A stretch of DNA of 46,946 nucleotides, taken from assembly GCA_043758305.1 (NCBI GenBank), contig JAYVNR010000098.1, positions 1-46,946 on the forward strand. Reading direction: 5' to 3'. Shown here one piece after another: positions 22,470 through 44,753 of the stretch (positions are counted from its first letter, which is position 1; every line of letters begins with the position of its first letter). The DNA comes from Pedobacter sp. Its GTDB lineage: Bacteria; Bacteroidota; Bacteroidia; Sphingobacteriales; Sphingobacteriaceae. Made by a program: the position numbers and the translations under genes. The notes beneath the pieces are model-generated. The model ran no database searches. It was not told the origin of the DNA and saw nothing but the letters and a program-made list of their open reading frames with translations.

Positions 22470-22542
<73 letters not shown>

Positions 22543-22577: not shown

Positions 22578-22649
22578 GGCCCGTTCGTCTAGGGGTTAGG
22601 ACCTCAGATTTTCATTCTGGTAACAGGGGTTCGATTCCCCTACGGGCTA
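22578..22649 (+). tRNA. tRNA-Glu (TTC)
   Basis: GGCCCGTTCGTCTAGGGGTTAGGACCTCAGATTTTCATTCTGGTAACAGGGGTTCGATTCCCCTACGGGCTA gives a cloverleaf with anticodon loop tTTTCAt. Confidence 0.9.
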
Positions 22650-28236: not shown

Positions 28237-28308
28237 GCAAAACAAAACTTTAAAATTTAATATTATGCATGTGAAAAACTTTAAAATTTAATTAATAATA
28301 ATAGTCCT

Positions 28309-29100: not shown

Positions 29101-29104
29101 TAAA

Positions 29105-31459
29105 ATGAGCTCTAAACAGCCTACAAGCTTTAAGAACGAAAATCATTTTACAGACTTAGGCAGGATTTTAAAAAAGTATCTATTTCATTGGCCTCTTTTC
29201 TTGTTGTGTATTTTAATTGCACTTGCAGCAGCCTTCACTTACTTAAAAGTAGTGGAGCCTGCTTACGAGATTAATGCAACTATCTTAGTTAAAGACAATA
29301 AAAAGGCTTCAGGAGGAGATAAATCTGCTCTACAGGAACTTGATCAATCAAGTGCACCAAAAAGTGCTGAAACCGAAATCCAGATTTTAAGGTCGAAAAA
29401 GCTTCTTAATAAAGTAATCGGAGATTTGCAATTATGGGCAGGTTATGAAACTAAAGACGGTTTGTCGAAAATAGACTTGTATGAAACAAGCCCTTTTAAA
29501 TTTATTTCGGCAGACACTGGCCGTATTTTGAAAGAGGAATCTTTCGATGTTCACATCAAAAACCGAAACAGCTTTGAAATTGCTAATTTAACTGGAGTTG
29601 CAAAAAATCAGTCCTTTAATAAAATTATTAAAAATAAATTCGGCAGATGGATGCTTAAGCCAACCGAATTTCTTGACCAGTATATTGGCGCTACCATTAA
29701 AGTTACTCTTAACAGTCCTGAAAAAGTAAGCAATGAATATCTAAAGGAGCTTGACACGCACCTTCTAGACAAATCTGCTCCAACCATTGGCTTGTTTATT
29801 ACAGACAAGGTTCCACAAAGGGGTAAAGATTTTCTCAACTATTTGATAAAAACGTACAATGAAGCAAGTGTTGATGAAGAAAAGCGCACTACAAAAAGCA
29901 CAATTGAATTTATTGATACCAGATTAGCTTCCCTGACAGGAGAACTTAGCAGTGCTGAAAAACAAGTTGAAGGATATAGGAGCAGCCAGGGACTTACGGA
30001 TATCAATTCACAATCTAAAGTATATTTAGAAAATGTTCAAACCAATGATAACAAGCTAAATGAAGTTGATGTTCAATTAAATATTATTGATGGTATAGAG
30101 CAATATGTAAATTCTTCTTCCGATGGGCAAAATGCGCCTGCAACAATTGGGATAACAGATCCTGCACTAAACAGTCAAATCCAAAAACTCTCTGATCTAC
30201 AGCTTCAAAGAACGGGTTTATTAGCTACAACGCCGGAAACAAACCCGGCCTTCCAGCCTTTAAATGATCAAATTTCGAGCACTAAATCATCAATAAAACA
30301 AACCATTAAAGGCATTAAATCGTCGCTGCTTAATTCTAAGAGGCAGTTAATGTCTTTTAATAATAAATTTGAATCATCTATTAAAGACATACCGGTCCAG
30401 GAACGCCAATATGTAGGCATGAAAAGGCAGGAATCTATTAAAGAAAATCTGTATGTGTATTTACTGCAAAAGCGTGAAGAGCTTGCCCTTAGCTATGCCT
30501 CTACATTTGTTGATGCCCGCATTGTAGATAAAGCCAATGTTGGCGATATTAAATGGCCCCGGCCGATGCTTGTTTTAGCAATAGCGCTTATATGCGGCTT
30601 TGGCCTCCCTTTCCTGATAGTATTTTTCAGGCAATCTTTCAACAATAAAATAACAGAAAAAAGGGATATTGAAACTAGCGTTGAGGTACCAATACTTGGA
30701 GAATTATCCTATGAAGATTTAGGGAAAGATATAATTGTACTTGATAATTCGCGGCATATTATCAGCGAACAATTTAGATCATTGCGCACCAACCTGCATT
30801 ATTTGCATGAAAATAAAACCGGTATCGGCAGAGTTACCCTGTTCACTTCAAGCACTGCCAGCGAAGGCAAGAGCTTTGTAAGCTCTAACCTGGCAGCCTC
30901 CCTTGCGGCAACCGGAAGGAAAACTGTAATACTTGAGATGGACTTGCGCAGGCCACGGGTCTTAAGCATTTTTAGCCTGTCTGCAGAGCATGCTGGAATT
31001 AGCGATTTCCTATCTTCTGACATTCCTTTAGACAACATCATTCAACCATCTGGAGTTACGCCAGCATTGGATGTTATTGGCAGTGGTTATATTCCGCCTA
31101 ATCCTTCAGAATTGTTAGAAAGAGAAAAATTGACCGAATTGATATCGGGTTTAAAGGAGCGCTATGATGATGTTATTATTGACAGCCCACCTCTGCACCT
31201 GGTTACTGATGCTATGATCATAGCACGCTTAGCGAACGTTTCTTTATACATAATCCGTCAGGGGCATACACTAAAAGATGAATTAGATTTTATAGATGAA
31301 GTGTATCACAGCGAGAAGCTTCCTAAAATGAACATTATCTTTAACGGAATAAAAAAAGGCAAATATGGTTATGGCTATGCATATGACAATAGCTATTATA
31401 CTGCCTCTCCTAAACAAACTTTCAATACATCTTTAAAATTATTTTTAAGCAGGTTTTAA
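29105..31459 (+). CDS. Polysaccharide co-polymerase / tyrosine autokinase (Wzc/GumC type)
   Basis: Wzz-like N-terminus with 2 TM segments and a coiled-coil periplasmic region. C-terminal P-loop kinase (TSSTASEGKSFVSSNLA, VIIDSPP) with the Tyr-rich tail GKYGYGYAYDNSYYT. Confidence 0.9.
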   Translation: MSSKQPTSFKNENHFTDLGRILKKYLFHWPLFLLCILIALAAAFTYLKVVEPAYEINATILVKDNKKASGGDKSALQELDQSSAPKSAETEIQILRSKKLLNKVIGDLQLWAGYETKDGLSKIDLYETSPFKFISADTGRILKEESFDVHIKNRNSFEIANLTGVAKNQSFNKIIKNKFGRWMLKPTEFLDQYIGATIKVTLNSPEKVSNEYLKELDTHLLDKSAPTIGLFITDKVPQRGKDFLNYLIKTYNEASVDEEKRTTKSTIEFIDTRLASLTGELSSAEKQVEGYRSSQGLTDINSQSKVYLENVQTNDNKLNEVDVQLNIIDGIEQYVNSSSDGQNAPATIGITDPALNSQIQKLSDLQLQRTGLLATTPETNPAFQPLNDQISSTKSSIKQTIKGIKSSLLNSKRQLMSFNNKFESSIKDIPVQERQYVGMKRQESIKENLYVYLLQKREELALSYASTFVDARIVDKANVGDIKWPRPMLVLAIALICGFGLPFLIVFFRQSFNNKITEKRDIETSVEVPILGELSYEDLGKDIIVLDNSRHIISEQFRSLRTNLHYLHENKTGIGRVTLFTSSTASEGKSFVSSNLAASLAATGRKTVILEMDLRRPRVLSIFSLSAEHAGISDFLSSDIPLDNIIQPSGVTPALDVIGSGYIPPNPSELLEREKLTELISGLKERYDDVIIDSPPLHLVTDAMIIARLANVSLYIIRQGHTLKDELDFIDEVYHSEKLPKMNIIFNGIKKGKYGYGYAYDNSYYTASPKQTFNTSLKLFLSRF

Positions 31460-31514
31460 CTATCAGTTAAGCTTTCATGCCTTTATTTTTGAATTAACTC
31501 AAACATGGTATTAA

Positions 31515-32840
31515 ATGTCTGATAAACTGATTTTTATACTACCGGGCATAGTGTTGCTTGCCTTTTTTTTAAACTTGGTTTATAAAGGGAACAACGTTCA
31601 ATCTTGTCTCACTTTTATTCTTGTCCTTCTACCTTTTATGGATTTGAAAATAACTAAAGAAGAATGGGGAGGATTTAAAATATTTGATTTCATAAGTTTT
31701 TTCTGTTTTATATTCCTTTTTAAAGAGTTTATAACTGTAAGCCTAAAAGGAAGAAATATATTCTACTTTTTTCTTTTCCTGTTTTTCTGTATCATAATTT
31801 TAATTGGTGGTTTAGCTTCAGAATTTCCTCAGAAGTCGTTTTTAGCTTTAATAAAAACCCTGCCCATATTTATAATTGCCAGATTTTTTATAACGGAGTG
31901 CCAAAAAGACCCATCCTTTCATATAAAAGCAATTAAGGCGCTGAGGATAGCATATTTAATAGATTTAGGTTTTCTTGTAGCCCAAATGATTGTTGGACTT
32001 AGGTTTACTTTTTATCCGGGATTGGCAACTAATACAATAGATCCCGTTTTTCATATTGTTAGATACCCTGGAGTTTTTTATGATTCTCAGGCTCATGGGC
32101 AATTCCTGGCTTTAGGAAGCTTCCTCTTCCTTTTTACTGAGAAAAATGCACCCATAAAAAAAACGATATTCAACTATAGCATATTCGCCCTGTCCATCGC
32201 GGGCATTGCCCTCGCCGGAAGCAGAGCTGCGTTTGGCGGGTTTGCAATTGGATTATTTATTGTGCTTTTAATGGCAGGCAATAAATACCGAATATATGGA
32301 AGCATAGTGATTGTAATAGGTTTGGCAGCTTATATCGTAATCTCGCCAGAAACGGGTGTTTTTAGCCGTACAAAAGCTCTTTCTGAGGATTATTTATACC
32401 GTCAAAGTATTTGGAATGAAGCTTTAGACATATCTAAAAAACATGCCTACTTAGGGATTGGCTCGGGCAACTATCAAAAATATATAATGAGGCATGTGCA
32501 AGACCAATACATAGAAATTCAAGATGGGCAGTTAGTATATTTTGACCAACCCGAAAACGGTTATTTAAAAATTTTAGTTGAGCTTGGCTATCTGGGCTTT
32601 GCTATTTTTATTCTGTTTTTACTTTTGCCATTGTTTACCGGTATTATATTGTATTTTAAAAATATTAACTATAAACAGGTTGTATTTTTTATGGCCTCAT
32701 TGCTTAGCTGGATTGTAGCTTTTAATACAGTTTATTCCATCTATGATTACAGGCTCTTGCTAATGGTAGTAAGTATGATTACGTTGATCATAACTTATCC
32801 TTCGCCTAGATTTTATGAGCATGAACTGGTTGAAGAATAA
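31515..32840 (+). CDS. O-antigen ligase/polymerase family membrane protein (Wzy-like)
   Basis: 441 aa with about 11 TM segments and a large loop. AGSRAAFGGF motif of Wzy_C. Confidence 0.75.
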   Translation: MSDKLIFILPGIVLLAFFLNLVYKGNNVQSCLTFILVLLPFMDLKITKEEWGGFKIFDFISFFCFIFLFKEFITVSLKGRNIFYFFLFLFFCIIILIGGLASEFPQKSFLALIKTLPIFIIARFFITECQKDPSFHIKAIKALRIAYLIDLGFLVAQMIVGLRFTFYPGLATNTIDPVFHIVRYPGVFYDSQAHGQFLALGSFLFLFTEKNAPIKKTIFNYSIFALSIAGIALAGSRAAFGGFAIGLFIVLLMAGNKYRIYGSIVIVIGLAAYIVISPETGVFSRTKALSEDYLYRQSIWNEALDISKKHAYLGIGSGNYQKYIMRHVQDQYIEIQDGQLVYFDQPENGYLKILVELGYLGFAIFILFLLLPLFTGIILYFKNINYKQVVFFMASLLSWIVAFNTVYSIYDYRLLLMVVSMITLIITYPSPRFYEHELVEE

Positions 32841-34293
32841 AAAAACCTCCATACTTCAATCGGCATTAGTAAAAAACAGTGCCTGGGGCATAGCATCAAA
32901 TATTCTTCAAACTATATTTGTTAGCTTATTTTTTGTTATAGTAGCCCGGGAATACACGCCAACCGCTTTCGCCCAATTTCTAATATCTAATACGGTTTAT
33001 CAAATAATAGTAGCCTTTTCCTCAATGGGGCTGGGACAATGGTTTATTCGCCAATATGACCAAGAGCCCGATAAAGTAGGGTTTACCAGTAAGTTTTTAA
33101 AAACACAGATTGGCTTAGGGATCTTATTTTACCTGATCAATATCTTAATAGCATATATACTTTATCCTGAAGGGCAAATTAGATTATTATGCATTATTCT
33201 GGGCACCAATATCATTTTCGATAATTTTATAAATGCCATTAAAAGCCTCAACATAGCTGAAGAGAGGCAAAAGAAAACTGCCTCAATTTTAATAATTGAT
33301 GGCTTTTTAAAGTTTTTAGTAGGATGTCTGTTGTTTATCATTCCTTTCTCGCCTGTTGTGCTATCAATGTTAATGATAGTTGTGCGCCTTTTTACGTCAA
33401 GCATTTTTATAAACCTGGGTACAGCAAATAGCATTAGCCTGAAATTGCTATGGAAAGCTAAAATATCTTATACAGACCTAAAGGAGCTAATTTTAAAAAA
33501 TTGGCAGTTTATTGTAATCGGGAGCATTTCAATAATTTATTGGAAAGTTGCCAATATTATAATTTCTAAGTTTTTAACCCTTACCGATGTAGCTAACTAT
33601 GAAATCGCTAACCGCATATTCACAATTTTAGGAATTCTGCCCGTAATAGCATCTGCAACTATATATCCCAAATTCATAAAACACTTTAACAGCAGTGATT
33701 TTGAAGGATTAAAGTCGTTCTATAAAAACCTCTATCTTATTTATACTTTATTTGCTCTGGTTTCGTATGCTTTTATTATTTCATTTTCCACCCAAGCCCT
33801 GCCTATAGCTTTTGGCAATGGCTATCCTGGTGCAGATATTTGTTTAAAGCAAATGTTCCTTACCTTTTTGCTTTTGCCAACCGTTTTATTACAAGCCAAT
33901 TTAATTGTAGCTATTGGGCTGGAACGAAAAGATATGTGGTTCAATATTTTAAGTTTTATAATTAATGTAGCCGGGTGCTTTATTGGACTTTATTTTTACA
34001 AAACCCTTGCAGTAATTAACTATTCCATCTTCCTCTCCTTTATTTTCTTTCATATTGCCCAGGATGTTCTATTGATTTCGAAAAAATTAACATCCATCAA
34101 AAGCTGCATTATATATTATTCTGGCTTATTTGTTTTTCTGGCTTATTGCCACTACTTTTCCAATTGGTTAAATCAGTATATATTTTTTATTGTTACATCT
34201 TTTGGAGCAATCACTGCTGCCTTGCTTATTAAATTTTTACAAGGTGGAAAACATATAGGCATGAATCAATTTAGTTCTGTAACTGGAAAATAA
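32815..34293 (+). CDS. Oligosaccharide flippase (Wzx, MOP superfamily)
   Basis: 492 aa with about 12-14 TM segments; overlaps the wzy 3' end. The start may be the internal MNWL (32821). Confidence 0.8.
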   Translation: MSMNWLKNKKTSILQSALVKNSAWGIASNILQTIFVSLFFVIVAREYTPTAFAQFLISNTVYQIIVAFSSMGLGQWFIRQYDQEPDKVGFTSKFLKTQIGLGILFYLINILIAYILYPEGQIRLLCIILGTNIIFDNFINAIKSLNIAEERQKKTASILIIDGFLKFLVGCLLFIIPFSPVVLSMLMIVVRLFTSSIFINLGTANSISLKLLWKAKISYTDLKELILKNWQFIVIGSISIIYWKVANIIISKFLTLTDVANYEIANRIFTILGILPVIASATIYPKFIKHFNSSDFEGLKSFYKNLYLIYTLFALVSYAFIISFSTQALPIAFGNGYPGADICLKQMFLTFLLLPTVLLQANLIVAIGLERKDMWFNILSFIINVAGCFIGLYFYKTLAVINYSIFLSFIFFHIAQDVLLISKKLTSIKSCIIYYSGLFVFLAYCHYFSNWLNQYIFFIVTSFGAITAALLIKFLQGGKHIGMNQFSSVTGK

Positions 34294-34294
34294 T

Positions 34295-36358
34295 ATGCCT
34301 GCCCTATCTATCATTGTTCCGGTTTATAACAAAGAACAGTATTTAAACGAATCTATTAAATCTATACTAAATCAAACTTTTACAGATTTTGAGCTGATAT
34401 TGGTTAATGATGGTTCTACCGATAGCAGCCTTGCTATATGCAGAAATTACCAGGAACTTGATAACAGGGTACATGTTATTGATCAGCCTAATGCGGGAGT
34501 ATCAGCGGCAAGGAATACAGGGATTGCCTTTTCTACAGGGACTTTTATTGGCTTTATCGATAGCGATGACACTATTGAGGCAGACATGTACCAATTGCTG
34601 CTTAGCAACGCTCTGGCACATAACGCTGATATATCGGCTTGCCTGATGCAGGTAGTTTATCCTAAAAAAACTATAAAGCCAGCCGAGGATCTAAGCACCA
34701 TAATCATTGATCACGATGATGCGCTATGCTCATTTTTTAAAGGCGATTTGGAAGAAAGCGCAAACAACAAGATTTATAAATCTGAAAAAGTAAAGCATAT
34801 TAAATTTGAAGGTTCTATAAATGAGGATATACTTTATAACTGCAAAGCTTTTCTTGTATCAGATACAACTGTATTGAGCAACACCATAAAATATAATTAT
34901 TTAATACGAGACAACTCTACGAGCATGAGCGGTTTTAATTTAAAATATTTTGAAACCACAGATGTTTCTGCCAAAATGCTCAACCTTGTTTCCGAAAAAA
35001 GCCATACCTGTGTTTCGCAAGCTAAAACCTTCGATGTTGTAACCAATATTTCTGTTTTAAACTTGATATTGCTTGCCGGAAAAAAACATTATCTCACTTA
35101 TTACCACCAAACTGTTAACAGGCTAAAAAGCTATTCTTCCTTTATAAAAAACTCTCCTACAGTTAAAAGAAAACATAAATACGCTTATCTGCTGTTTTCA
35201 CTTTCATCATGGTTATATACATGGGTAATGTATGTAGTATGTGTAATCACACAGGCCGATGTAATAAAAAGGACTGCCCAAGTTGCCGTTGCGCCTAATA
35301 TTAATGATCCTAAATCAAAAGCATCCTGGATTGACAATGTTAAAGTTATTGCTATTTCTGCTATAATTACGCTCCATGCCTCTGCAGCAGGTGTTATAGA
35401 TTTTCCTAAACCTGCTTCAAATAACACCTGGTGGATTGCTAATTTTTATGATTCATTTTGCCGATTTGGCACACCGGCTTTCCTTATGGTTACCGGAGCT
35501 TTATTATTACGGCAGAACATCGGGCTTAAAGAGTTTTTAAAACGCCGACTAAACCGGATACTGGTGCCATTTGCATTTTGGTGGTCTATTTATCTGGCAT
35601 TTGGTTTAGCATTAAATATCAGGAATATCGGTTATGAAGCCACAATCCATAATTTTTTGCCTTGGGCAAAAGAACAGATTCTTCAAGGCCCGGCAGTTCA
35701 CTTATGGTATGTTTATATGATCATTAGCCTCTATCTATTTATACCAATCATAAAGCCATGGGTCCAAACTGCCAGCAACAAAGCTATAATGTACTTTTTA
35801 AGCCTTTGGCTTATAACCTTAGCAGTAAATCAGCAACAATTTTTTCTTTTGTCCACACCGTTCGACCTTAAATATTTTAGCGGATATATCGGGTATCTGG
35901 TACTCGGCTACTTCATTTCAGAGCGGCTAATTATATCGCTAACAATGCGCAAAATGGCCATCTTGTTATTCTTCACAGGTTTCATAATCACATTAGTGGG
36001 GACTTATTTGCTAAGCAGCGCAAGAGGCACTTTTGCCAATGATTTTTATAATAGATTAACTGTTAACGTCTTAATGTCGGCAAGCGGTGCTTTTATCATC
36101 ATGAGGAGCTTAAAATCTAATCTGGAGAACCTGGCATTGATAAGGATAAGGAATATAATAAGCCGCTATGGCTTCGGTATTTATTTAAACCATATTCTCA
36201 TTTTAGACATTTTATCATTCTTTAAGATAAACTATAAATTTATAAACCCTGTAATTGGCATACCTCTTAGCAGTATTTTGTGCCTGATAATTAGTTGTTT
36301 AGTGATTTATATTTTAAATAAACTCCCTTACGGGAAATCTGTTTCTGGTTCTATATAA
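34295..36358 (+). CDS. Fusion protein: family-2 glycosyltransferase (N-terminal about 300 aa) plus acyltransferase-3 membrane O-acyltransferase (C-terminal about 350 aa)
   Basis: N-terminus: LSIIVPVYNKEQYL..SI.S.LNQTF.DFELILVNDGSTD and FIDSDD. C-terminus: W.DN.KVIAI..II..H and F.RFGTPAFLMVTGALL with about 10 TM segments. Confidence 0.85.
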   Translation: MPALSIIVPVYNKEQYLNESIKSILNQTFTDFELILVNDGSTDSSLAICRNYQELDNRVHVIDQPNAGVSAARNTGIAFSTGTFIGFIDSDDTIEADMYQLLLSNALAHNADISACLMQVVYPKKTIKPAEDLSTIIIDHDDALCSFFKGDLEESANNKIYKSEKVKHIKFEGSINEDILYNCKAFLVSDTTVLSNTIKYNYLIRDNSTSMSGFNLKYFETTDVSAKMLNLVSEKSHTCVSQAKTFDVVTNISVLNLILLAGKKHYLTYYHQTVNRLKSYSSFIKNSPTVKRKHKYAYLLFSLSSWLYTWVMYVVCVITQADVIKRTAQVAVAPNINDPKSKASWIDNVKVIAISAIITLHASAAGVIDFPKPASNNTWWIANFYDSFCRFGTPAFLMVTGALLLRQNIGLKEFLKRRLNRILVPFAFWWSIYLAFGLALNIRNIGYEATIHNFLPWAKEQILQGPAVHLWYVYMIISLYLFIPIIKPWVQTASNKAIMYFLSLWLITLAVNQQQFFLLSTPFDLKYFSGYIGYLVLGYFISERLIISLTMRKMAILLFFTGFIITLVGTYLLSSARGTFANDFYNRLTVNVLMSASGAFIIMRSLKSNLENLALIRIRNIISRYGFGIYLNHILILDILSFFKINYKFINPVIGIPLSSILCLIISCLVIYILNKLPYGKSVSGSI

Positions 36359-36365
36359 TATCGAA

Positions 36366-37475
36366 ATGAATAAACCTAGAATCTTGTATAGTGTGCCTTC
36401 TCAAACACATATCGCTTTATGCCTGGATGAAGTTGAAGGCCTGGAAGAGCTGGGATATCCATGCGCAAAATTCTCCTATCATGCAAAAGATGGATTTGAA
36501 TCCAAGGTTGCACGTTTGTATATAATAATCAAAAATGCCCTTAATTTGGTTCGTATAGCTCATCATTTCAAACCAGACATAATTTATTTTAATTCCCGCC
36601 TTGAACCTACTGCCAGCACCAGAGATTTTATTACGCTTACTATTTTCAAATCTTTATATCGCAAAAAGGTTCTCATCATGTTAAAATCTCATGGTTCTGA
36701 GATTGGAACCCTTAGCAGCACAAACGCTTTATTGAAAAATCAGGTAATGCCTTATTTGAAAAAGAACATTGGCGCCTGGCTGTTTTTATCTACTGAAGAA
36801 AAAAGCAAAATAGACAAGAACGGATACCTAGTTCCAGAGAAAGTTTTTGTAACAAAAAACATTGTCCGAGCCTGGCAATTTCATCGCGATCAATCATTTA
36901 AACAACGAAACAATATACCTATAGATTGTAAAATATTGCTTTTTGTGGGCAGGATTATCAAAGAAAAAGGGATTTATAATGTAATTGAAGCATTCGCAAA
37001 AATTCAGGAAACTTATAAAACGTTTTTAATAATTGTTGGCAATGGTAGTGCCCTGAATGATGTAAAACAGACCATTCATAAACTTGGGCTGCAAGAAAAA
37101 GTTATCCTGACCGATCGTATCCCGGAAGAAGATGTAGTGGAATATTACGCAAACAGCGATATTTTAGTGTTCCCGACATTTGATCAGGAAGGCTTTCCAA
37201 TGGCTTTATTCAATTCTGTTGCTGCGGGCTTATCTATTGTTACAACTCCAATACGTGCTGCGACCGATTATCTATCAGAACCCGAAAATTGCCTTTGGGC
37301 AGAACCTCAAAATAGCGAAAGCGTTTTTACAGCACTCGAAACATTGTTAAAATCTGAGCCACTAAGCGCAAACATGAAAATCAATAATATTGAGAAAGGC
37401 CAATTCTTTGGCAAAGAAAGGGTCTGTGAAGAATTGGATAAAATTATTGAAACAGTTCTTAAACAAAAGAATTAA
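36366..37475 (+). CDS. Family-4 glycosyltransferase (GT-B, Glycos_transf_1)
   Basis: LLFVGRIIKEKG and FPTFDQEGFPMALFNSVAAGLSIVTT (E-x7-E region). Confidence 0.85.
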   Translation: MNKPRILYSVPSQTHIALCLDEVEGLEELGYPCAKFSYHAKDGFESKVARLYIIIKNALNLVRIAHHFKPDIIYFNSRLEPTASTRDFITLTIFKSLYRKKVLIMLKSHGSEIGTLSSTNALLKNQVMPYLKKNIGAWLFLSTEEKSKIDKNGYLVPEKVFVTKNIVRAWQFHRDQSFKQRNNIPIDCKILLFVGRIIKEKGIYNVIEAFAKIQETYKTFLIIVGNGSALNDVKQTIHKLGLQEKVILTDRIPEEDVVEYYANSDILVFPTFDQEGFPMALFNSVAAGLSIVTTPIRAATDYLSEPENCLWAEPQNSESVFTALETLLKSEPLSANMKINNIEKGQFFGKERVCEELDKIIETVLKQKN

Positions 37476-37648
37476 AATGGATTTGGGTTAAATGAAAAAA
37501 CAAATTGATGCCTATAATATTATTTTTAGAGCATATAAGATGTCCTCCTCATCTCATGTTGTTTTTTTGGTCTCACCTAAGCCGGGAATAGTGAAAGCCG
37601 GGGAATTTCACATAAAACAAAAATGCTTTTTGATCTATTAATTCAATT

Positions 37649-38422
37649 ATGCTTAACATAAGTATGCAAACTGCCAAGAAAAATTTTATTGACTATTCTG
37701 TATTTACGGAACCACTAAGCTTATTGCCATCTAAACCGTCAATGCTTGTTAATACAATTAATCAATATTCATTTTGCATTGCCGAAAAAGATGCTGCTTT
37801 TAAAACTGCCTTGCAGGGATCCGATGTTTTGCTCCCCGATGGAGTTGCTATTGTAGGAGCAGTAAAGCTTTTAACAGGCGATAAAATAAAAAAGATAGCC
37901 GGGGCAGATATCCATCAATATTTATTAAAAAAGTTAGATAGCAACTATGGGAGCTGTTTTTATTTAGGAGCTACAGAAAAAACTCTTACAACAATAAAAG
38001 AAAAACTTTCTAAAGAGTATCCGAATATACGAGTAGGATCATTTTCTCCACCATATAAACAGACTTTTAGTGCTGAAGATAATGATCAAATGATTTTAGC
38101 CGTAAACCAATTCAAACCCGATGTGGTTTTTGTGGGCATGACAGCCCCTAAGCAGGAAAAGTGGTCATTTGAGCATAAAACTAAACTTAACACAAACATC
38201 ATATGCACTATAGGAGCAGTATTTGATTTTTATGCCGGCACAGTAACCCGTCCGGGAAATATTTGGATTAGTTTAGGATTGGAATGGTTCATAAGGTTAA
38301 TAAAAGAGCCTAAACGCTTATGGAGGCGTTATTTGTACTATGGCCCAATATTCATAGCTCTGATGATAAAAGAAAAGATTAAGCTGGTTTTTTCCGAACA
38401 ATATCCGGCTACAACTTCATAA
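37649..38422 (+). CDS. WecB/TagA/CpsF family glycosyltransferase (GT26)
   Basis: LLPDGVAIV, CFYLGA and PDVVFVGMTAPKQEKW motifs. The start may be the internal MQTAKK. Confidence 0.85.
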   Translation: MLNISMQTAKKNFIDYSVFTEPLSLLPSKPSMLVNTINQYSFCIAEKDAAFKTALQGSDVLLPDGVAIVGAVKLLTGDKIKKIAGADIHQYLLKKLDSNYGSCFYLGATEKTLTTIKEKLSKEYPNIRVGSFSPPYKQTFSAEDNDQMILAVNQFKPDVVFVGMTAPKQEKWSFEHKTKLNTNIICTIGAVFDFYAGTVTRPGNIWISLGLEWFIRLIKEPKRLWRRYLYYGPIFIALMIKEKIKLVFSEQYPATTS

Positions 38423-38423: not shown

Positions 38424-41009
38424 TTAAATAATATGTACTACTTTCTGATAAAGTTGCGCATTGGCAGCACTAACAACTTTAACTAAATACATCCCCCTTA
38501 CCAGTTTAATGCTCCCCGCATCTACAGAATATTTTTGAGGCTCATTTGCTTTTATAAAACCGGAATAAATGTTCACAATAAGTTTCCCCTGTAAATCATA
38601 AAGGCTTAAAGCACTATTACCAGATACTGGCAATATAAGCTCTAAGATTAATTTATTATTGAAAGGATTGGGATAAGCTTTTAATTCCGCCTTGGTTTCT
38701 TTGTTAGAAATAATTGCACTTGAATTTGCCACTCCGCTTGCTACATTTAAAATTTTAGTGGTTGCCTTTGCTGGCTGATATTGTTCGTTGCCTGATTGGG
38801 TGGCTTCGATAACAACAGTTCCATATCCTTTAAATTTTACGGTTTTTCCATCTATTTCAGCCGGGCCAGATGCAATCTTTAATTCTACCGGCAAACCTGA
38901 ACTGGCTACAGAAACAACTTCCACAGGTGCACTTGCTATTGTGGTGCTTTCTGCCTGAGAAAATGTAATAGTTTGAGAAGCTTTTATTGTAGAGGTTGCA
39001 ACAGCTTTTTGATCTGATGCTATTAAAAGAACAGATGAATAAGGGTTGATAGAAATCTTATTAGTATAAATTTTGTTGTGGACGTCTATATAAGATTTGC
39101 TTAAAGCGATAGTTTTTACTGTACTTGTAGCATTATATTGAAAAAGGATATAATTATCTATGCTGTTTGCAGGTATAGATTGCTGTGTTTTTACAGAATG
39201 CTGGTCTTTATTATAAGCGGCTTTCCATCCCGCAAGATCATAAGACTTATTTACATTAGTCCCGTTTTTTACAATATAAGCTGTGATATTGGCAAGCTCA
39301 TTAACAGGCCTGAAATAAAAATTGCTATCTAATGATCCAAATGAAGCAATATCATCTTGCTGAGTAGATAATTTTGAAGTAAGCTGTGTTCCAATTTTTG
39401 AAAAGAATATATTGCTTTTAATATCAATATTCCTAATATTAGTGCTTGTTGATGAATAATGATCTTGTTCAAGCCTTAGTTGTACACCGTTGTTATAAAC
39501 TGTATTGTTGTAAATATTAACGTATTGAGCATCATGAATTTTAATTCCATTATTTGAGCACATAGAAACTGTATTGCCTGCTACTGTTACACTTTCGCTT
39601 AAATCATCAATGTATATGCCTTCAGCAGCCAGGTATGATGCATTTGTGCCTTGAGAATTTCCAATCCCATTCAATACAATGTTGCCAATAATCTCCTTGT
39701 TGGAACTTTTAAACCAATCTCCCACATAAATTCCCGCCCCATCATCTTTTGTTAAGCAAAAATTATTGATGAAGTTATTTTTAACAGAAGCAGAATTACC
39801 ACCAAAATATATACCGTTATAGCCAGTGCTGTCAATATTGTTTTTTTCAATCTTAGCATTGGCACCAAATGAGGTAATTGCGATATTAGTGCCCGAAACA
39901 CTCTTGCCTAAGCCTACAATAAGACCTGTATTTTTAATTGTATTGTTCTTTATAATTGCATTTGTGCATCCATCATCGATGTGCATACCGCTGTTTAAAG
40001 AATGGTTGATTACAGAATTTTCAAGCTTAAAATCTGGTGAATAAGAAACTGAGAAAGCATCGGTTCCTGTTATGTTAGTAACACAGTTCTTAATTGTAAC
40101 CCCTTTTGAATTAACGATATTAAAGGCATTGATTGATGCGCCTAAAAACTCAATGTTGTCAAATGAAACATTATTAGAACGCCGGATGTCTACTAAATTT
40201 GTACCTGAGCTTGTTTTAACATGATAAGATGAAGGGTCTTTAGAGCCGAAAAATACCATCATTGTTTTTCTTGAAGCATCAAAATACCACTCGCCGAATT
40301 GATCTAATGTTTTTTCGCTATTCTGAATAAAATAACCATATCCATTAGTAGGTGCATCTTTGCTTCCTGCCTCATAATTAAGAGTATTTCCAGAGTGTTG
40401 AGTCACTAATCTCCTATCAATAGTCCATCTGTTTTTCCTTATAACAACTTCTGCTCCTGTCCAATTTATGGAAGCTGATAATTGATTATCGGTTATAGAA
40501 GAATTGCCAGAATGAGATTCGTATGAAAGATAGCCTGTATTCGGATAACGCCCCATCCCCTGTTGAGAACCGTTTATTATCAGGCTAGTTCCATCTGTAT
40601 TGCACAAAGCCTCATATATACCGCCCCCTACAGATTTCCAGGAAGTAAGAGGAATCAAACCGCTTATAACAGGTTTGCTGCCACTGCCATAAGCACCAAA
40701 AGAAATCGAAGAATGAGTTAATACAATAAATCCATCAAATATATCCCCTCTTTTAAATAAAATGGAATCCCCAGGAGCCATGCTCAAGAAAAAAGAATTA
40801 AGCTTGCTTAAAGTTTTCCAGGGAGTGTGTTGATTTTGAGCCTGGATGATGCTATTTTGATCATTCCCAATTGATGAAGAAAAATAATAATTAGCAGAAT
40901 AAGAATACTTTGGTAGCACAAAAAAAGCTCCAATCAATAATATAAATAGAAACTGGCTTGCTTTTTGGTATGCGGCAACAAAACGTGTTACAGATAATTT
41001 GCTTTTCAT
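38424..41009 (-). CDS. Large secreted parallel beta-helix protein with Ig-like region and T9SS C-terminal sorting domain
   Basis: Signal peptide. NYYFSS..G.D cap, many N.I..N beta-helix turns and an Ig-like segment. C-terminus: KAYPNPFNNKLILEL..LSLYDLQGKLIV..GMYLVKVV (Por/T9SS CTD pattern). Confidence 0.85.
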   Translation of the reverse strand: MKSKLSVTRFVAAYQKASQFLFILLIGAFFVLPKYSYSANYYFSSSIGNDQNSIIQAQNQHTPWKTLSKLNSFFLSMAPGDSILFKRGDIFDGFIVLTHSSISFGAYGSGSKPVISGLIPLTSWKSVGGGIYEALCNTDGTSLIINGSQQGMGRYPNTGYLSYESHSGNSSITDNQLSASINWTGAEVVIRKNRWTIDRRLVTQHSGNTLNYEAGSKDAPTNGYGYFIQNSEKTLDQFGEWYFDASRKTMMVFFGSKDPSSYHVKTSSGTNLVDIRRSNNVSFDNIEFLGASINAFNIVNSKGVTIKNCVTNITGTDAFSVSYSPDFKLENSVINHSLNSGMHIDDGCTNAIIKNNTIKNTGLIVGLGKSVSGTNIAITSFGANAKIEKNNIDSTGYNGIYFGGNSASVKNNFINNFCLTKDDGAGIYVGDWFKSSNKEIIGNIVLNGIGNSQGTNASYLAAEGIYIDDLSESVTVAGNTVSMCSNNGIKIHDAQYVNIYNNTVYNNGVQLRLEQDHYSSTSTNIRNIDIKSNIFFSKIGTQLTSKLSTQQDDIASFGSLDSNFYFRPVNELANITAYIVKNGTNVNKSYDLAGWKAAYNKDQHSVKTQQSIPANSIDNYILFQYNATSTVKTIALSKSYIDVHNKIYTNKISINPYSSVLLIASDQKAVATSTIKASQTITFSQAESTTIASAPVEVVSVASSGLPVELKIASGPAEIDGKTVKFKGYGTVVIEATQSGNEQYQPAKATTKILNVASGVANSSAIISNKETKAELKAYPNPFNNKLILELILPVSGNSALSLYDLQGKLIVNIYSGFIKANEPQKYSVDAGSIKLVRGMYLVKVVSAANAQLYQKVVHII

Positions 41010-41450
41010 ATTTACTCTACTTTAAATTAAATGCTACAGCCTGAAACTGTTTATTTTAAATCAAAAAGATATAACGAGAAGCAATAAAAGAAGAGATACA
41101 AGAAAATTTCCCACTATTAGTGCAGAAATTATTGTTGAGTTTGAAGCATGTCCCACGATGCTTATGTTTTTCTGTTCTTTCAATTGCTAGACGATAATAG
41201 ATGTTAACTCAAATATACAACAGTTTGTTCTAAAAAAATAACAAACTGTCCCCAATAACATACTTTATGCTTTTAATCTGTATAGCAATTGCTACAAAAC
41301 CTCTTATTGGATAAATTGAGGGCATATTATTCTTGATTAAGATTTGATTGATTGCTTTAGAATGACATTAATCTCATTGCTATAAGATTTATAAGAGATG
41401 TAAACAAACAATTAATCCACAATAGCTATTTATTAAAAAATCAAAATGCC

Positions 41451-44036
41451 ATGCTTGCCAATTGTTTTATACAGCCTTTAGAGAAATGCTATCTTCAAAC
41501 TGAAAAAGATAATTATACCTACGGATGGCTTAGAGATAGGATTCAAAAAATAACTTTCGTGTTCCAACAATTTAATGTTGGTATAAATGACAGGATAATC
41601 CTATCTACTACCAATGAAGCTGAGATAAGTGCAATATTTCTTGCAGCCTTAAACCAAGGTATAGGTGTAATTGTGGTTGATAATGATACCAAAACTCCAC
41701 GGGTTGAAGCAATTGTAGATAAAGTTGACCCTAAGCTGATTATAGCAGATGCAGGCCTTATAGCAAGCTGGGAATTAAAAAATACTGCTACCTCTACTCT
41801 TATATCTATTGATAGCCTAGCTCTTGATCAAACTGATCTTGACCAGTATTTCGATCTTATAGATAACGCATCCGATATAACTATTGAAGTTAAAGAATAC
41901 CCCGATTCACTTGCTTATATAATGTTTACTTCGGGCACTACTTCAGATCCTAAAGGTGTTGCCATATCACAAACAAACCTTGTAACCCATTTAACAACCT
42001 TACAAAATGTTTATGGACTTACGGCTGATAGCTTACTTCTTAACCAGTTAATTCTGTCTCATGCAGATGGATTGATCCAGGGGCCTGTATTAGCTGCGTT
42101 TGTGGGATGTACCTGGCATCGCCCTTTTGGATTTTCAATAAATACCGTGTCAACGCTATTGCAATATATATATACAAAAGACATAACCCATTTTATTGCT
42201 GTGCCAACCATGTTGCATTTCCTGGTGCATAATTCCGAAGGGCATGAGAACAGCTTCCATAATCCTAAATTCCAATTAATTATATCAGTATCTGCCAATC
42301 TTAACAAAAGCCTATGGGATATTTTTGAAGAGACTTTTAAGGTTAGCCTTAGCAATGTATACGGTTTAACGGAAACAGTTGCAGGAAGCCTATTTTGCGT
42401 CCCATTAAATAATAATTATAAAAAATATACAGTGGGAAAGGCAGTAGATTGCTTTACTAAGATCATTGATGAGAATGGCAATTTGGTGCCTTCAGGAGAA
42501 TCCGGGCAATTATGCTTGAAAGGTGACCATATTATGCGGGGCTACTGGAAAAACCAGGAGAAAACCGATGAAGCCATAAAAGACGGTTGGCTATATTCTG
42601 GGGACAGGGCCATACAGGATGAGGATGGTTTTATCACGATAGTTGGAAGAATTAAGAGCGAGATAATTTCAGGGGGCATGAATATCCAGCCTCAGGAAAT
42701 TACAGAATGCATATTATATCACGAAAAAGTATTCGATGCTTTTGCCTTTGCATTGCCTGATGAAATATTAGGTGAAAAACTTGCTTTGGCAATAGTTCCG
42801 CAAAAAGGAGAATCTCTAACCAAACAGGATATTATTGCTTACTGCACCCAAAAACTTGAAAAAAAGTTAGTACCACAAGAAGTGTACATTTTAAATGAGT
42901 TGCCAAAGGGAATATCCGGCAAGGTTCAAATAGAAAAATTAAAAGATATATGTAAAACTATTCATAATAATGCTTCAAATACACCATCCACCGGAGAAAG
43001 CAATATCCTGAATATTATTTTCGAAATTTATAACAAGCCACTGTCGCAACTTTCGCTAGATTCTGATTTCTTCGATTTAGGAGGAGATTCTATGCTTGCG
43101 GCTCTTTTCATTGCCAAAGTTGAACAGGTTTACAAGGTAAGATTGCAGTTTCGGGAGATTTATAAAACTTCAAACCTCAAAGAACTTGACGCACTAATTG
43201 TAAAGCTGCAATCTAAAGAAAGCTTTGCTGAACAGGAAATCCAACGCATAAAGCCTCAGGTTTACCCTTTAAGCGAGGGAGAAAAAAACACTAAAATAAT
43301 TATTGTAGCAAATGATTATTACGAGATACATGAGCTAGCCGATCATTTAACAGAAACTTACGATTGCTATTTTGTGCAATACCCCATTACTTTTAAATAT
43401 GCTGATAATAAAAAGAAGGGGATTAATAAAATACCAACCGTAAACCAAATCTCTCAGGAGATTATAGAATTATTGAAAAACAATCAGCTTATTGATGATA
43501 GAACATTATTTATGGGCTTCTCTTTTGGAGGCCTTGTAGCTTTTGAAATAGCACGGCTGTTAAATATTCATGCTAGGGTTAAACATAAAGTTATACTGAT
43601 AGATGCAATAGTTTCAGATTTGCGGTTCCCGCTCCTTACAAGATATCTAATTAAAGTTAGAAGAAAGATTGATACTATATCTTCAAATTTTGAACCTAAA
43701 AAAGCATCCATCGATAACCACGCAAAAAAGCATTTAATGACATTTGTGAAAAGCCATAGCAATTTTAAAAATGAATACATGTCTTTGGCTAAAGAAATAG
43801 AGGATGATTATATACCAGATGAAATTGAAGATGGCGTTGTTGTATTGATAACAAGCGAAACCAATGAAGCAAAGGAAGAAAATATACGATATTGGAAAAA
43901 CAAGGTAAAATGCGGCTTGCTGGTAATAGAAGCTAAGGGAAATCATAGAATGTGCTTATTAAACCCAGAGTTAAGCAAATGGGTATTTAAGCTAACCCAC
44001 TTATTGAAAGCATTGACAGGAGTTTCTGCCGCTTAG
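41451..44036 (+). CDS. Stand-alone NRPS-like tridomain enzyme: adenylation (ANL) - carrier protein - thioesterase
   Basis: Adenylation domain: FTSGTTSDPKGV (A3), NVYGLTET (A5), YSGDRA..DEDGFITIVGRIK (A7/A8), PKGISGKVQ (A10 Lys). Carrier domain: FFDLGGDSMLA, Ser547 at codon 43089-43091. Thioesterase: GFSFGG (Ser691, 43521-43523) and C-terminal GNHRM. No condensation domain. Confidence 0.85.
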   Translation: MLANCFIQPLEKCYLQTEKDNYTYGWLRDRIQKITFVFQQFNVGINDRIILSTTNEAEISAIFLAALNQGIGVIVVDNDTKTPRVEAIVDKVDPKLIIADAGLIASWELKNTATSTLISIDSLALDQTDLDQYFDLIDNASDITIEVKEYPDSLAYIMFTSGTTSDPKGVAISQTNLVTHLTTLQNVYGLTADSLLLNQLILSHADGLIQGPVLAAFVGCTWHRPFGFSINTVSTLLQYIYTKDITHFIAVPTMLHFLVHNSEGHENSFHNPKFQLIISVSANLNKSLWDIFEETFKVSLSNVYGLTETVAGSLFCVPLNNNYKKYTVGKAVDCFTKIIDENGNLVPSGESGQLCLKGDHIMRGYWKNQEKTDEAIKDGWLYSGDRAIQDEDGFITIVGRIKSEIISGGMNIQPQEITECILYHEKVFDAFAFALPDEILGEKLALAIVPQKGESLTKQDIIAYCTQKLEKKLVPQEVYILNELPKGISGKVQIEKLKDICKTIHNNASNTPSTGESNILNIIFEIYNKPLSQLSLDSDFFDLGGDSMLAALFIAKVEQVYKVRLQFREIYKTSNLKELDALIVKLQSKESFAEQEIQRIKPQVYPLSEGEKNTKIIIVANDYYEIHELADHLTETYDCYFVQYPITFKYADNKKKGINKIPTVNQISQEIIELLKNNQLIDDRTLFMGFSFGGLVAFEIARLLNIHARVKHKVILIDAIVSDLRFPLLTRYLIKVRRKIDTISSNFEPKKASIDNHAKKHLMTFVKSHSNFKNEYMSLAKEIEDDYIPDEIEDGVVVLITSETNEAKEENIRYWKNKVKCGLLVIEAKGNHRMCLLNPELSKWVFKLTHLLKALTGVSAA

Positions 44037-44039
44037 AAA

Positions 44040-44753
44040 ATGATATTTCTAAGTAAGCTTGAAAAGCTGACCCCCGATATTCGAACTTATTTGTTGGCTA
44101 ATTATTTATCCGGCGACGAATCTGCCAAAGCATTAAAATTACAGGATACAATACAGGCAGATAGCTATATCCAATCTCATGCATTTCTGCGCAAGGCACT
44201 TTCCAATATCTTGAATACCCAACCCCTTTCCCTGAAATTTTATACTAATACCTGGGGGAAACCATTTCTGCAAAATTGGCCCAATATCCATTTCAATCTT
44301 TCTCATACATTTGGAATGGCGGCGCTTATTGTGAATAAAACATATTGCGGTATTGATGTAGAATGGATTAAAGAACAAAATATTGAACTTATTAAAAATG
44401 TGGTATATCATCCGGATGAACTCGCAAATGAAAAGCTATTGAAAAAGAGGCCTGAAATGCTTTCTAATTTTTATCGTATTTGGGTTATAAAAGAAGCTTT
44501 TTTAAAAACCTTGGGCACAGGCTTATCTACCGATCCCACCTCGCTTAAAGTGATACATATAAAAAGCAATCAATATAAGGTACAAGGCGGGGAAAATGGT
44601 TTAATAGATGCAAAAATCATTTACAGCCAGTTTCAGGATTGGGCAATGGCGTATTCTATTTCAGCAGACGAAATCAATGGGCCTACAAAAGAAAATCCTA
44701 TCCAATGGGTTTCAGTACCGGATTGCTCAATAAACAAAATCACCTATAGCTGA
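44040..44753 (+). CDS. Sfp-type 4'-phosphopantetheinyl transferase
   Basis: FNLSHT, GIDVEWI and WVIKEAFLKTLGTGL are the canonical PPTase motifs. The gene starts 3 nt after the A-T-TE stop. Confidence 0.85.
   Translation: MIFLSKLEKLTPDIRTYLLANYLSGDESAKALKLQDTIQADSYIQSHAFLRKALSNILNTQPLSLKFYTNTWGKPFLQNWPNIHFNLSHTFGMAALIVNKTYCGIDVEWIKEQNIELIKNVVYHPDELANEKLLKKRPEMLSNFYRIWVIKEAFLKTLGTGLSTDPTSLKVIHIKSNQYKVQGGENGLIDAKIIYSQFQDWAMAYSISADEINGPTKENPIQWVSVPDCSINKITYS

Follow-up and report, generated by a model that had tools for sequence, protein, structure and literature searches.

The gene pair at positions 41451 to 44753 of the window (the whole stretch of 46,946 nucleotides of Pedobacter sp. DNA analyzed here) is best explained as a self-contained acylation module belonging to the adjacent exopolysaccharide (EPS) locus. 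We give a probability of roughly 0.4 to the reading that the pair acylates the EPS repeat unit in a carrier-dependent way, with a thioesterase domain as the transferase. By analogy, the enzyme probably decorates the exopolysaccharide, since the family of its adenylation domain appears to work elsewhere like the Dlt decoration of the cell wall.

The first gene (41451..44036, plus strand; ORF call and Pfam) encodes an 861-aa protein with a single module, in which Pfam finds PF00501, PF13193, PF00550 and PF00975 in this order and nothing else. The adenylation (A) domain (residues 17-491, 41499..42923, +) comprises AMP-binding at residues 17-366 (199 bits, E 1e-58) and AMP-binding_C at residues 417-491 (43 bits). 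It is followed by a carrier (T or PCP) domain (residues 519-579, 43005..43187, +; PP-binding, 43.5 bits) with the phosphopantetheine site Ser547 (nt 43089-43091) within FFDLGGDSM, a motif of the NRPS type, and by a thioesterase (TE) domain (residues ~603-856, 43257..44018, +). Pfam calls the latter only weakly: in the whole protein PF00975 scores 28.3 bits (cut-off 26.4), and with the excised region it reaches 31.3 bits (E 3e-7) across residues 40-187 of that region. The call is backed by the predicted fold, since an AF2 model of residues 600-861 (pLDDT 74.8, pTM 0.78) when compared with the PDB by Foldseek matches mostly thioesterase domains of NRPS, PKS and FAS enzymes (probability 1.00, TM ~0.6). 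Lower down the Foldseek list are a few other alpha/beta-hydrolases. The alpha/beta-hydrolase fold and the triad Ser691 (nt 43521-43523), Asp718 (27 residues further on, nt 43602-43604) and His832 (nt 43944-43946) are those of a type-I (PF00975) thioesterase. The carrier at Ser547 and the TE motifs had already been read from the sequence in the original prediction, and Pfam, the homologue alignment and the fold search agree with it; likewise no condensation, reductase or KS domain was found in the protein by the Pfam search.

Three nucleotides downstream and on the same strand lies the gene of a 237-aa 4'-phosphopantetheinyl transferase (PPTase; 44040..44753, +; ORF call, Pfam, NCBIfam). It can be assigned to the Sfp type by its ACPS domain (PF01648, 47 bits), its length and the motifs GxDxE (104-108) and WxxKExxxK (148-156), both invariant in four syntenic orthologues. 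The N-terminus weakly matches AASDHPPT_N (PF22624), and in NCBIfam HetI scores highest, with AusB and AcpT also among the best. The predicted unit of A-T-TE protein and dedicated PPTase is thus real in the window, but as a fixed pair it holds only in part: the PPTase gene adjoins the A-T-TE gene in four of seven loci and is missing beside the other three.

Only seven protein clusters of this A-T-TE form were found, probably all from one bacterial family. In the alignment of the seven full-length homologues, which are 50-71% identical, GGDS (with Ser547), GxS691xGG, Asp718, GNH832, the LSHADG of the A domain and a large part of the TE core do not vary, and we conclude from this that the carrier and TE domains are under selection. 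The N-terminus ML..CF.Q is kept in the seven homologues as well, so that the start codon of the A-T-TE gene is credible. The TE family is isolated, its own cluster scoring 464 bits and the next match among 1.84e9 representatives 65 bits.

Judged by motifs and model scores, the A domain is of the acyl-CoA-ligase type and not of the NRPS type. It carries the core motifs TSGTTSxxKG (160-169), YGLTET (304-309), GD (384-385), GR (399-400) and PKGxSGK with Lys491, all invariant across the homologue alignment. The model for NRPS-type A domains, TIGR01733, reaches 164 bits against a cut-off of 317.4. The A4 region, with His204-Ala205-Asp206 (42060..42068, +; in the alignment equivalent to His214-Val215-His216 of AtAAE3), reads ILSHADGL and aligns gap-free with PLFHVHGL of oxalate-CoA ligase, and it fails to align with FDxS in genuine NRPS modules, as had been foreseen. 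The acyl pocket was mapped with the residue list of an earlier study (PMC8905533) and is predicted to include A205, D206, V280, S281, G305 and L306. In the conservation table all five A-T-TE proteins and nine of 12 proteins linked to an MBOAT gene have the same residues at these six positions. Asp206, which is invariant, possibly binds an amino or hydroxyl group of the acid substrate. Because it occupies an acyl-pocket position, the original conclusion that the substrate is not an amino acid was too strong.

In the Dlt pathway of Gram-positive bacteria a carrier-loaded acid acylates a cell-envelope polymer. The closest relatives of the A domain, with 37-51% identity in this domain, are A-T proteins of Bacteroidota, and in all four of the relative loci examined the A-T (or A-A-T) protein is encoded together with an SGNH-like protein, a DltB-like MBOAT protein and a microprotein. 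These uncharacterised cassettes (loci L004, L006-L008 and L093) consist of a ~940-aa AMP-binding protein, the ~605-aa A-T protein, an SGNH-like protein (~285-317 aa) with the motif GxSL...DxxH, the MBOAT protein, for which LTA_dltB (169 bits) is the sole NCBIfam match and DltB (97 bits) gives the sole PDB matches, and a microprotein of 37-45 aa ending in FRYLRW, FRYANW, FRYLQW or FLYLHL. One of the cassettes adjoins Poly_export and exosortase EpsH/EpsI genes. The FxYxx(W/L) end of the microprotein resembles the acyl-shuttle motif FXYXXF of DltX (PMC12148441), and a Gram-negative example of Dlt, the Bordetella dra locus, is cited in PMC4448142. A Dlt-like route had been offered before as one of two possibilities, and it gains unexpected support because the nearest relatives of the A domain lie in DltB-like MBOAT cassettes.

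The window protein shares with the cassette proteins the motifs HADGxIQGP and YGLTETV and the six predicted pocket residues. However, the cassette A-T proteins have no TE and rely on a membrane MBOAT partner, whereas the window protein has a T-TE unit and is encoded in an EPS locus. The carrier domains are only 18-26% identical, with LGGDS of the NRPS type in the A-T-TE protein and GWDSLAHL in most of the MBOAT-linked relatives. Since A domain and pocket match these relatives while the carrier is so divergent and NRPS-like, the A-T-TE protein can be read from its sequence as a chimera in which a Dlt-type A domain is joined to a T-TE unit of NRPS-like character. With the Dlt pathway proper (DltA, DltC, DltB, DltD, DltX) it has in common an ANL-family enzyme and a phosphopantetheinyl carrier. 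It differs in that DltA is of the NRPS type with the FDxS Asp and works with a free-standing DltC, whereas here the A4 region is LSHADG, the carrier is NRPS-like and fused to the A domain and a fused TE would take the place of the membrane relay; models and structures of DltA were absent from the top 25 NCBIfam and top 60 PDB matches. The proposed target is also different, EPS here and teichoic acid in Dlt.

The Wzx/Wzy-type EPS locus (26851..38422, +; Pfam) encodes an initiating sugar transferase, Wza, Wzc, Wzy, Wzx, a fusion of a GT2 and an acyltransferase-3 (AT3) domain, a GT1 and a glycosyltransferase of the WecG/TagA family; its presence beside the gene pair, including the GT2/AT3 fusion, was confirmed by Pfam. 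The A-T-TE gene is separated from the EPS genes by the gene of a secreted protein (38424..41009, -; Pfam) that has a right-handed beta-helix and, at its C-terminus, a T9SS sorting domain. The A-T-TE gene is divergent from this beta-helix gene and not part of the EPS operon. In the 441 nt between the two (41010..41450), presumably the promoter region, a scan found sigma-70 sites to be no more numerous than in shuffled controls, and an Rfam search gave no match at E<=1.

The linkage to EPS genes recurs in every locus that holds such genes: in all four (the window, P0003, P0004 and P0005) the A-T-TE gene is found at the WecG end, and this position is kept although the intervening genes differ, the beta-helix gene being present at the same place in P0003 and replaced by other genes in P0004 and P0005. 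Part of this synteny may be due to shared ancestry, as there are only seven clusters, probably from a single bacterial family. In the P0006 locus no EPS gene was found within 4.8 kb upstream. The GC content of the A-T-TE gene (0.358) and of the PPTase gene (0.364) falls in the range of the EPS locus (0.33-0.37), and in both GC and GC3 the pair resembles the EPS genes rather than the genes downstream. The GH1-like (0.404) and SDR (0.417) genes differ in GC from the pair and from the EPS locus and are absent from every other locus, and their suspected link to the pair is not supported.

We propose the following mechanism. The PPTase would prime Ser547, and the A domain would adenylate a small acid and then thioesterify it onto the carrier, the acid being the same as, or very similar to, that of the Dlt-type A-T/MBOAT cassettes of Bacteroidota. 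From the carrier the acyl group would move to Ser691 of the TE, which would hand it, on the cytoplasmic side, to a hydroxyl group carried by the EPS repeat unit or by a sugar precursor. In this way the TE would replace the relay of MBOAT, DltX and SGNH proteins that the relatives use outside the membrane, and the chimera would have joined the EPS locus at its WecG end. If the acid were simply hydrolysed off unmodified, the result would be an ATP-wasting futile cycle. We propose that the TE acts as a transferase; the fold matches fit a hydrolase or a cyclase as well: they include the TE of Vlm2 (E 1.7e-11), AB3403, NocB, Pks13 and FAS as well as the type II editing thioesterases RedJ and YbtT, and span all TE chemistries at ~15% identity, which the fold search does not separate. 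A precedent for the release of an acyl group onto a sugar by a type-I TE is given by Pks13 of mycobacteria, whose TE, likewise of the PF00975 fold and among the top structural matches, uses trehalose (PMC12933137). Pks13 is, however, a PKS condensing very long acyl chains and its TE is only ~15% identical, and sugar transfer by the window enzyme is our inference.

Rather unlikely, in our view, is a stand-alone NRPS-like small-molecule synthetase that lies beside the EPS locus by chance, its TE cyclising, dimerising or hydrolysing the acid, which may first be tailored in trans, to release a diffusible product. An A-T-TE protein with a dedicated Sfp-type PPTase is typical of secondary-metabolite genes, the TE fold is as close to the oligomerising or cyclising Vlm2 and NocB as to any other, and the A-T-TE gene does not run on from the last genes of the EPS operon under a promoter common to both; the P0006 locus, too, fits this explanation. 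The A-T-TE layout itself is common in bacteria and not unusual: a very large family of A-T-TE proteins of the acyl-CoA-ligase type (P0170-like) extends across phyla, with examples in Cylindrospermum stagnale PCC 7417, Cohnella, Nostoc and Bryobacteraceae. Its members (800-930 aa) share the four Pfam domains and their order, and A4 FHTHG, GGDSL and GYSFGG lie at almost identical positions, but the window protein is only ~24% identical to them (213 bits). Neither of the two P0170-like contexts examined is a polysaccharide locus or has an adjacent PPTase gene, and the source annotations of the family name no function. On the other hand, no conserved tailoring, transport or regulatory gene was found beside the A-T-TE gene in the homologue loci, where only EPS genes and the PPTase gene recur, the A domain, with its pocket, stems from a family linked to Dlt-type acylation of a polymer, and base composition groups the pair with the EPS island. 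Counted against an acylation of the EPS were that the locus already encodes an AT3 acyltransferase, the divergent transcription, the PPTase missing beside three of seven homologues, the P0006 locus and the two P0170-like members outside polysaccharide loci.

Still less probable is that the A-T part feeds a separate membrane acyltransferase, either the GT2-fused AT3 or a DltB-like MBOAT encoded elsewhere, and that the TE is confined to editing or recycling, freeing the carrier of wrongly loaded acyl groups. In the relatives of the A domain the acyl group does go to a DltB-like MBOAT, the window has an AT3-encoding gene 5 kb upstream of the A-T-TE gene, and editing thioesterases are among the Foldseek matches. 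But the window encodes no MBOAT or SGNH-like protein among the ORFs of at least 120 aa scanned by Pfam (all non-nested ones except 8222-8824 on the minus strand), and none of its small ORFs has a credible FxYxx[FW] C-terminus as expected for a DltX-like microprotein. The carrier has diverged from those of the relatives and lost GWDSLAHL, and a fused TE with an invariant triad defines the A-T-TE family. The suggested link to the GT2/AT3 fusion found no support either: the available upstream part of the P0004 locus encodes a hexapeptide transferase and no AT3, and a review of AT3 proteins names no carrier-protein donor, does not use the term 'acyl carrier' and names acetyl-CoA in its keywords (PMC9558356).

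An ordinary acyl-CoA synthetase with accessory or vestigial carrier and TE domains is very improbable. Homologues are labelled 'long-chain acyl-CoA synthetase' in public annotation, the best PDB match of the A domain is oxalate-CoA ligase (5ie0, 201 bits), and in NCBIfam the highest scores go to models of fatty-acid, malonyl and oxalate CoA ligases; yet none of them reaches its curated cut-off, the best one (PRK06187) scoring 283 bits against 476, and the selection on Ser547, the TE triad and the TE core as well as the PPTase gene adjoining in four of seven loci argue against it. Among solved structures the oxalyl-CoA synthetases of Arabidopsis (AAE3) and grass pea (5ie0-5ie3, 6qjz) are closest, with the gap-free A4 alignment and AAE3 Ser289 retained as Ser281. 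The oxalate-specific His319, however, has a gap as its counterpart and Asp206 stands in the place of His216, so that oxalyl-CoA synthetase was rejected; moreover AAE3 makes a CoA thioester and has neither carrier nor TE domain. A PEP-CTERM/exosortase-A-associated acyl-CoA ligase was likewise rejected (TIGR03098, 174.5 bits against a cut-off of 592), and the TE region gave no match to exosortase-associated alpha/beta-hydrolase models even at E<=10. In fatty acyl-AMP ligases (FAALs) an insertion of ~20 residues in the N-terminal domain blocks the CoA-ligase conformation. No FAAL-type insertion is present before the hinge, as judged indirectly from the alignment to oxalate-CoA ligase, which has no gaps over residues 320-493.

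The fungal enzymes of the TdiA/AtrA type and RalA of Ralstonia have NRPS-type A domains which activate aryl alpha-keto acids, and a TE that dimerises them in a Claisen/aldol-type reaction. A quinone or furanone synthetase of this kind, dimerising such acids as the TE of non-reducing NRPS-like A-T-TE enzymes is described to condense two alpha-keto acids (PMC9047271), had been considered and is hardly credible here: domain order, length, stand-alone single module, the requirement for an Sfp-type PPTase and the lack of the amino-acid-binding FDxS are alike, but the A domain is of the acyl-CoA-ligase type with a predicted pocket of small residues plus Asp, it is most closely related to Dlt-type A-T proteins, the gene lies beside EPS genes, and Pfam found no aminotransferase to supply an aryl-pyruvate among the window neighbours of the pair.

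Returning to the acylation of the EPS, we tentatively suggest that a small lineage of the Sphingobacteriaceae has rewired a Dlt-type system, keeping its A domain and pocket and giving up the membrane relay with its carrier, MBOAT, DltX and SGNH proteins for an NRPS-type carrier and a fused TE. The TE would esterify the lipid-linked EPS repeat unit directly, within the cell, with the acid that the Dlt-type system uses, possibly one with an amino or hydroxy group to which Asp206 binds. If true, this would be a previously undescribed, TE-catalysed and carrier-dependent route of polysaccharide acylation, and it would point to a complete and uncharacterised Dlt-type pathway with a DltX-like microprotein which is widespread in Bacteroidota.

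Both open reading frames lie where originally predicted, at 41451–44036 (+, 861 aa) and 44040–44753 (+, 237 aa) with a spacing of 3 nt, and the proposed pairing of an adenylation–carrier–thioesterase (A-T-TE) protein with a PPTase was confirmed by Pfam domains, invariant motifs and a fold match of the thioesterase. In the 861-aa protein Pfam finds AMP-binding (residues 17–366, 199 bits), AMP-binding_C (residues 417–491) and PP-binding (residues 519–579, 43.5 bits). The thioesterase call (PF00975) is marginal, with 28.3 bits for the whole protein against a cut-off of 26.4 and 31.3 bits for the excised region. This weak call is supported by the AlphaFold model of residues 600–861 (pLDDT 74.8, pTM 0.78), which resembles known thioesterase domains: its matches in the PDB (TM about 0.6, probability 1.00, identity about 15%) are mostly NRPS, PKS and FAS thioesterase domains (Vlm2, AB3403, NocB, Pks13, FAS, RedJ, YbtT), a few other alpha/beta-hydrolases following further down the list. 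The full-length AF2 model is of moderate quality only (pLDDT 64) and no inference was based on it. We aligned seven full-length homologues retrieved from about 5.8 billion proteins. The adenylation core motifs and the LSHADG segment, the carrier motif GGDS with Ser547, and the thioesterase residues GxS691xGG, Asp718 (27 residues after the serine) and GNH832 are invariant in all seven. The 237-aa protein is an ACPS-family PPTase according to Pfam, with a weak AASDHPPT_N lobe, and since HetI, AusB and AcpT head its NCBIfam matches it is of the Sfp type.

The best curated models for the A domain are acyl-CoA ligases (PRK06187 with 283 bits, then malonyl-CoA synthase, FadD and MenE), all scoring below cut-off, and the NRPS amino-acid adenylation model TIGR01733 reaches 164 bits against a cut-off of 317. 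The closest solved structure is the Arabidopsis oxalate-CoA ligase (201 bits), followed by luciferases, the LgrA A domain and MatB. The segment ILSHADGL aligns without gaps with PLFHVHGL of the oxalate-CoA ligase, and His204 corresponds in the alignment to the pantetheine-tunnel residue His214 of AtAAE3 (PMC8905533). When A4 was aligned directly with genuine NRPS modules of other loci, the alignment was gapped or failed altogether, and because of this instability we do not regard the region as NRPS-like. The gap-free match and the poor NRPS alignment thus bear out the original prediction that A4 is not of the FDxS type. This does not justify the further claim that the substrate is no amino acid, as the predicted pocket contains an invariant acidic residue to which an amino or a hydroxyl group could bind. 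We transferred the acyl-pocket residues listed for AtAAE3 (PMC8905533) by pairwise alignment: Val215, His216, Cys288, Ser289, Ala313, Met314 and Lys500 correspond to Ala205, Asp206, Val280, Ser281, Gly305, Leu306 and Lys491, respectively, and His319 falls on a gap. Oxalate was rejected as substrate on these predicted residues. Curated-model searches with the protein and with the TE region also led us to reject identity with the PEP-CTERM/exosortase ligase–ACP–hydrolase cassette.

The full A-T-TE form of this family is rare, with seven clusters of 50–71% identity among about 5.8 billion proteins, and the only cluster with a name is annotated 'hypothetical protein' and comes from a Sphingobacteriaceae MAG. 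The thioesterase itself is isolated: in an exhaustive profile search of 1.84 billion representatives its own cluster scored 464 bits and the next match 65 bits. It supersedes a query of the 5.8-billion-protein index with the TE alone, which gave zero matches and missed known family members too. Among the matches listed for the TE alignment against species-representative genomes there were only generic NRPS/PKS thioesterase domains (at most 34% identity), and the back-translated ANDYYE motif gave two chance matches in a metagenome collection from which the known JGI members are evidently absent.

The next relatives are at least 100 Bacteroidota proteins, mostly of about 605–617 aa, from Chitinophagaceae, Spirosoma, Niabella, Cytophaga and others, which have the A and T domains and no TE. 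In all four loci examined (L004:7178-13908; L006/L007:7329-14054; L008:7138-13900; L093:8001-13450) they are part of one shared cassette. Besides the A-T protein it encodes another large AMP-binding protein, which may be separate or fused (A-A-T), a DltB-like MBOAT protein (sole NCBIfam match DltB with 169 bits, sole PDB matches DltB with 97 bits), a 283–317 aa SGNH/DltD-like protein and a microprotein of 37–52 aa. The SGNH-like protein has an N-terminal hydrophobic stretch reading as a transmembrane helix; it gave no Pfam match and no PDB homologue, and its assignment comes from two motifs alone, the invariant GxSL and DxxH. In the microprotein a hydrophobic stretch is followed by the C-terminus FRYLRW, FRYANW, FRYLQW or FLYLHL. 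The acyl-shuttle motif of DltX is FXYXXF, and other MBOAT/SGNH pathways have neither a carrier protein nor a DltX-like microprotein (PMC12148441). The cassette, having both, therefore resembles the Dlt type, and judged by their gene content these MBOAT-linked relatives have the appearance of complete Dlt-type pathways, here in a phylum of Gram-negative bacteria. In our literature searches we found no description of a Dlt-like system in Bacteroidota, nor of ligase/ACP cassettes in O-antigen loci. In L093 the cassette adjoins Poly_export and exosortase EpsH/EpsI genes.

The domains of the window protein differ in their closeness to these relatives. Its A domain is 37–51% identical to the MBOAT-linked proteins (55–85% within the A-T-TE group), the carrier region only 18–26% (41–70% within the group). 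The carrier motif is GWDSLAHL in the MBOAT-linked proteins versus the NRPS-type FFxLGGDS in the A-T-TE proteins, and the excised carrier region of the window protein scores best with NRPS models. The six predicted pocket residues, by contrast, are shared without change by five of five A-T-TE proteins and nine of twelve MBOAT-linked proteins. No MBOAT gene, SGNH-like gene or DltX-like ORF was found in the window. We read the window protein as a putative chimera, in which a Dlt-type A domain with unchanged substrate pocket has been fused to a T-TE unit of NRPS-like origin.

We compared the surroundings of the gene in seven loci. In the window a Wzx/Wzy EPS locus (26851–38422) and then a divergent T9SS beta-helix gene lie upstream, and the PPTase gene followed by convergent GH1-like and SDR genes downstream. 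The P0003 locus has the same EPS and beta-helix genes upstream and the PPTase gene followed by different genes downstream. In the P0004 locus the A-T-TE gene is preceded by EPS genes, the last of them WecG, then by a 243-aa gene and one for Acetyltransf_6, in the P0005 locus by WecG and a 246-aa gene, and both are without the PPTase gene downstream. P0006 has 4.8 kb without EPS genes upstream; for P0007 and P0002 the contigs are too short on this side. Downstream follow the PPTase gene (P0006, P0007) or a convergent NTP-transferase gene (P0002). The WecG end of the EPS locus is thus the one recurring neighbour, being found in four of four EPS-containing loci, and the PPTase gene is adjacent in four of seven. 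The GH1-like, SDR and AT3 genes, which had been considered as partners, are not conserved in that role across the compared loci. The A-T-TE (0.358) and PPTase (0.364) genes resemble the EPS genes (0.33–0.37) in GC content, unlike the GH1-like (0.404), SDR (0.417) and most other genes outside the island (about 0.37–0.49). In the 441 nt upstream of the A-T-TE gene no riboswitch or promoter was found.

The low-GC EPS region including both genes spans 23000–44800, and the GC content climbs right after the PPTase stop codon, which would fit a polysaccharide island that is variable or has been exchanged horizontally. Two tRNA genes (22470–22542 and 22578–22649, +) separate the era/der GTPase genes from this region and could mark its boundary. 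Two right-handed beta-helix proteins flank the EPS genes (25070–26392, +; 38424–41009, −, the latter with a T9SS C-terminal sorting domain) and may be EPS-modifying or EPS-degrading enzymes. The sorting domain identifies the organism as a member of the Bacteroidota. At 34295–36358 (+) GT2 and acyltransferase-3 form one 687-aa ORF; in the syntenic locus L002 (of a 70%-identical relative) they are two genes with a 4-nt overlap (2374–3390 and 3387–4436), and in L001 the AT3 part is annotated as a gene of reduced length (207 aa), a small gene on the reverse strand having been called between the two. In the P0004 locus (JGI 3300050046) a hexapeptide acyltransferase takes the place of AT3, and the A-T-TE gene is divergent from the Acetyltransf_6 gene (PF13480), a family which we take to be FemAB-like. 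Towards the other end of the window, the urease accessory genes ureD, ureG, ureF and ureE (904–4058) accompany the urease alpha-subunit gene (4137–5852, −), within which an antisense match to Rfam 5_ureB_sRNA (5408–5706, +, 90.8 bits) probably reflects coding-sequence conservation and not a real sRNA. A SAM riboswitch (RF00162, 71.5 bits; 15520–15621, −) closely precedes the B12-dependent methionine synthase gene (11616–15440, −), which is adjoined by an MTHFR gene (10077–11033, −).

By its sequence, the catalytic equipment for priming, adenylation, thioesterification and formation of acyl-O-Ser is intact. The acid activated would be that of the Dlt-type relatives, and the TE would probably pass the acyl group on to an acceptor, since hydrolysis of the unmodified acid would amount to a futile cycle. 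The most economical acceptor would be the EPS repeat unit or a sugar precursor at the cytoplasmic face, and release by a type-I thioesterase onto a sugar has a precedent in Pks13 and trehalose (PMC12933137). We give this reading, TE-catalysed transfer of the carrier-bound acid to such an acceptor, a probability of roughly 0.4. An independent small-molecule synthetase, compatible with the P0006 surroundings and less so with the recurring WecG neighbour, is unlikely. Still less probable is an A-T acyl donor for another acyltransferase with the TE in an editing role, an arrangement recalling the relatives with their MBOAT partner, which the window lacks. An ordinary CoA ligase, despite the ligase models heading the A-domain matches, is very improbable given carrier and TE, and a quinone synthetase of the TdiA/RalA type, for all its shared domain order, hardly deserves consideration next to a Dlt-type A domain.

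The A-T-TE architecture itself is not new. Of the 8000 candidates scored in a search seeded with P0170, a distant A-T-TE hit (24% identical), more than 7000 had E ≤ 1e-30; the best 120 all share the four Pfam domains of the window protein, and nearly all have a length of about 800–1050 aa. Firmicutes, Cyanobacteria (including Cylindrospermum stagnale PCC 7417), Acidobacteria, Binatia and other groups contribute to this family, whose annotations go no further than 'AMP-binding protein', 'acyl-CoA synthetase' or 'oxalate--CoA ligase' and name no function. The two contexts inspected (L094:10001-12640, L095:10001-12643) are not polysaccharide loci and have no conserved partners. Acyl-CoA-ligase-type A-T-TE proteins are hence very common in bacteria and the window protein is less exceptional than the original prediction implied. 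The novelty lies in where its A domain comes from, a cassette of the Dlt type, in the domain swap and in its repeated association with an EPS locus.

In the literature cited here polysaccharides are acylated from acyl-CoA by AT3 or by MBOAT/SGNH enzymes, the Dlt pathway being the sole carrier-protein route. If the TE truly moves a carrier-bound acid onto the EPS repeat unit, this would be a third mechanism, cytoplasmic and carrier-dependent, and the gene pair would offer a simple two-gene handle on EPS charge or chemistry. The more interesting lead may, however, be the Dlt-type cassette found outside the window: that many Bacteroidota have it, together with an FxYxx(W/L) microprotein, bears on the generality of the acyl-tyrosine shuttle mechanism.
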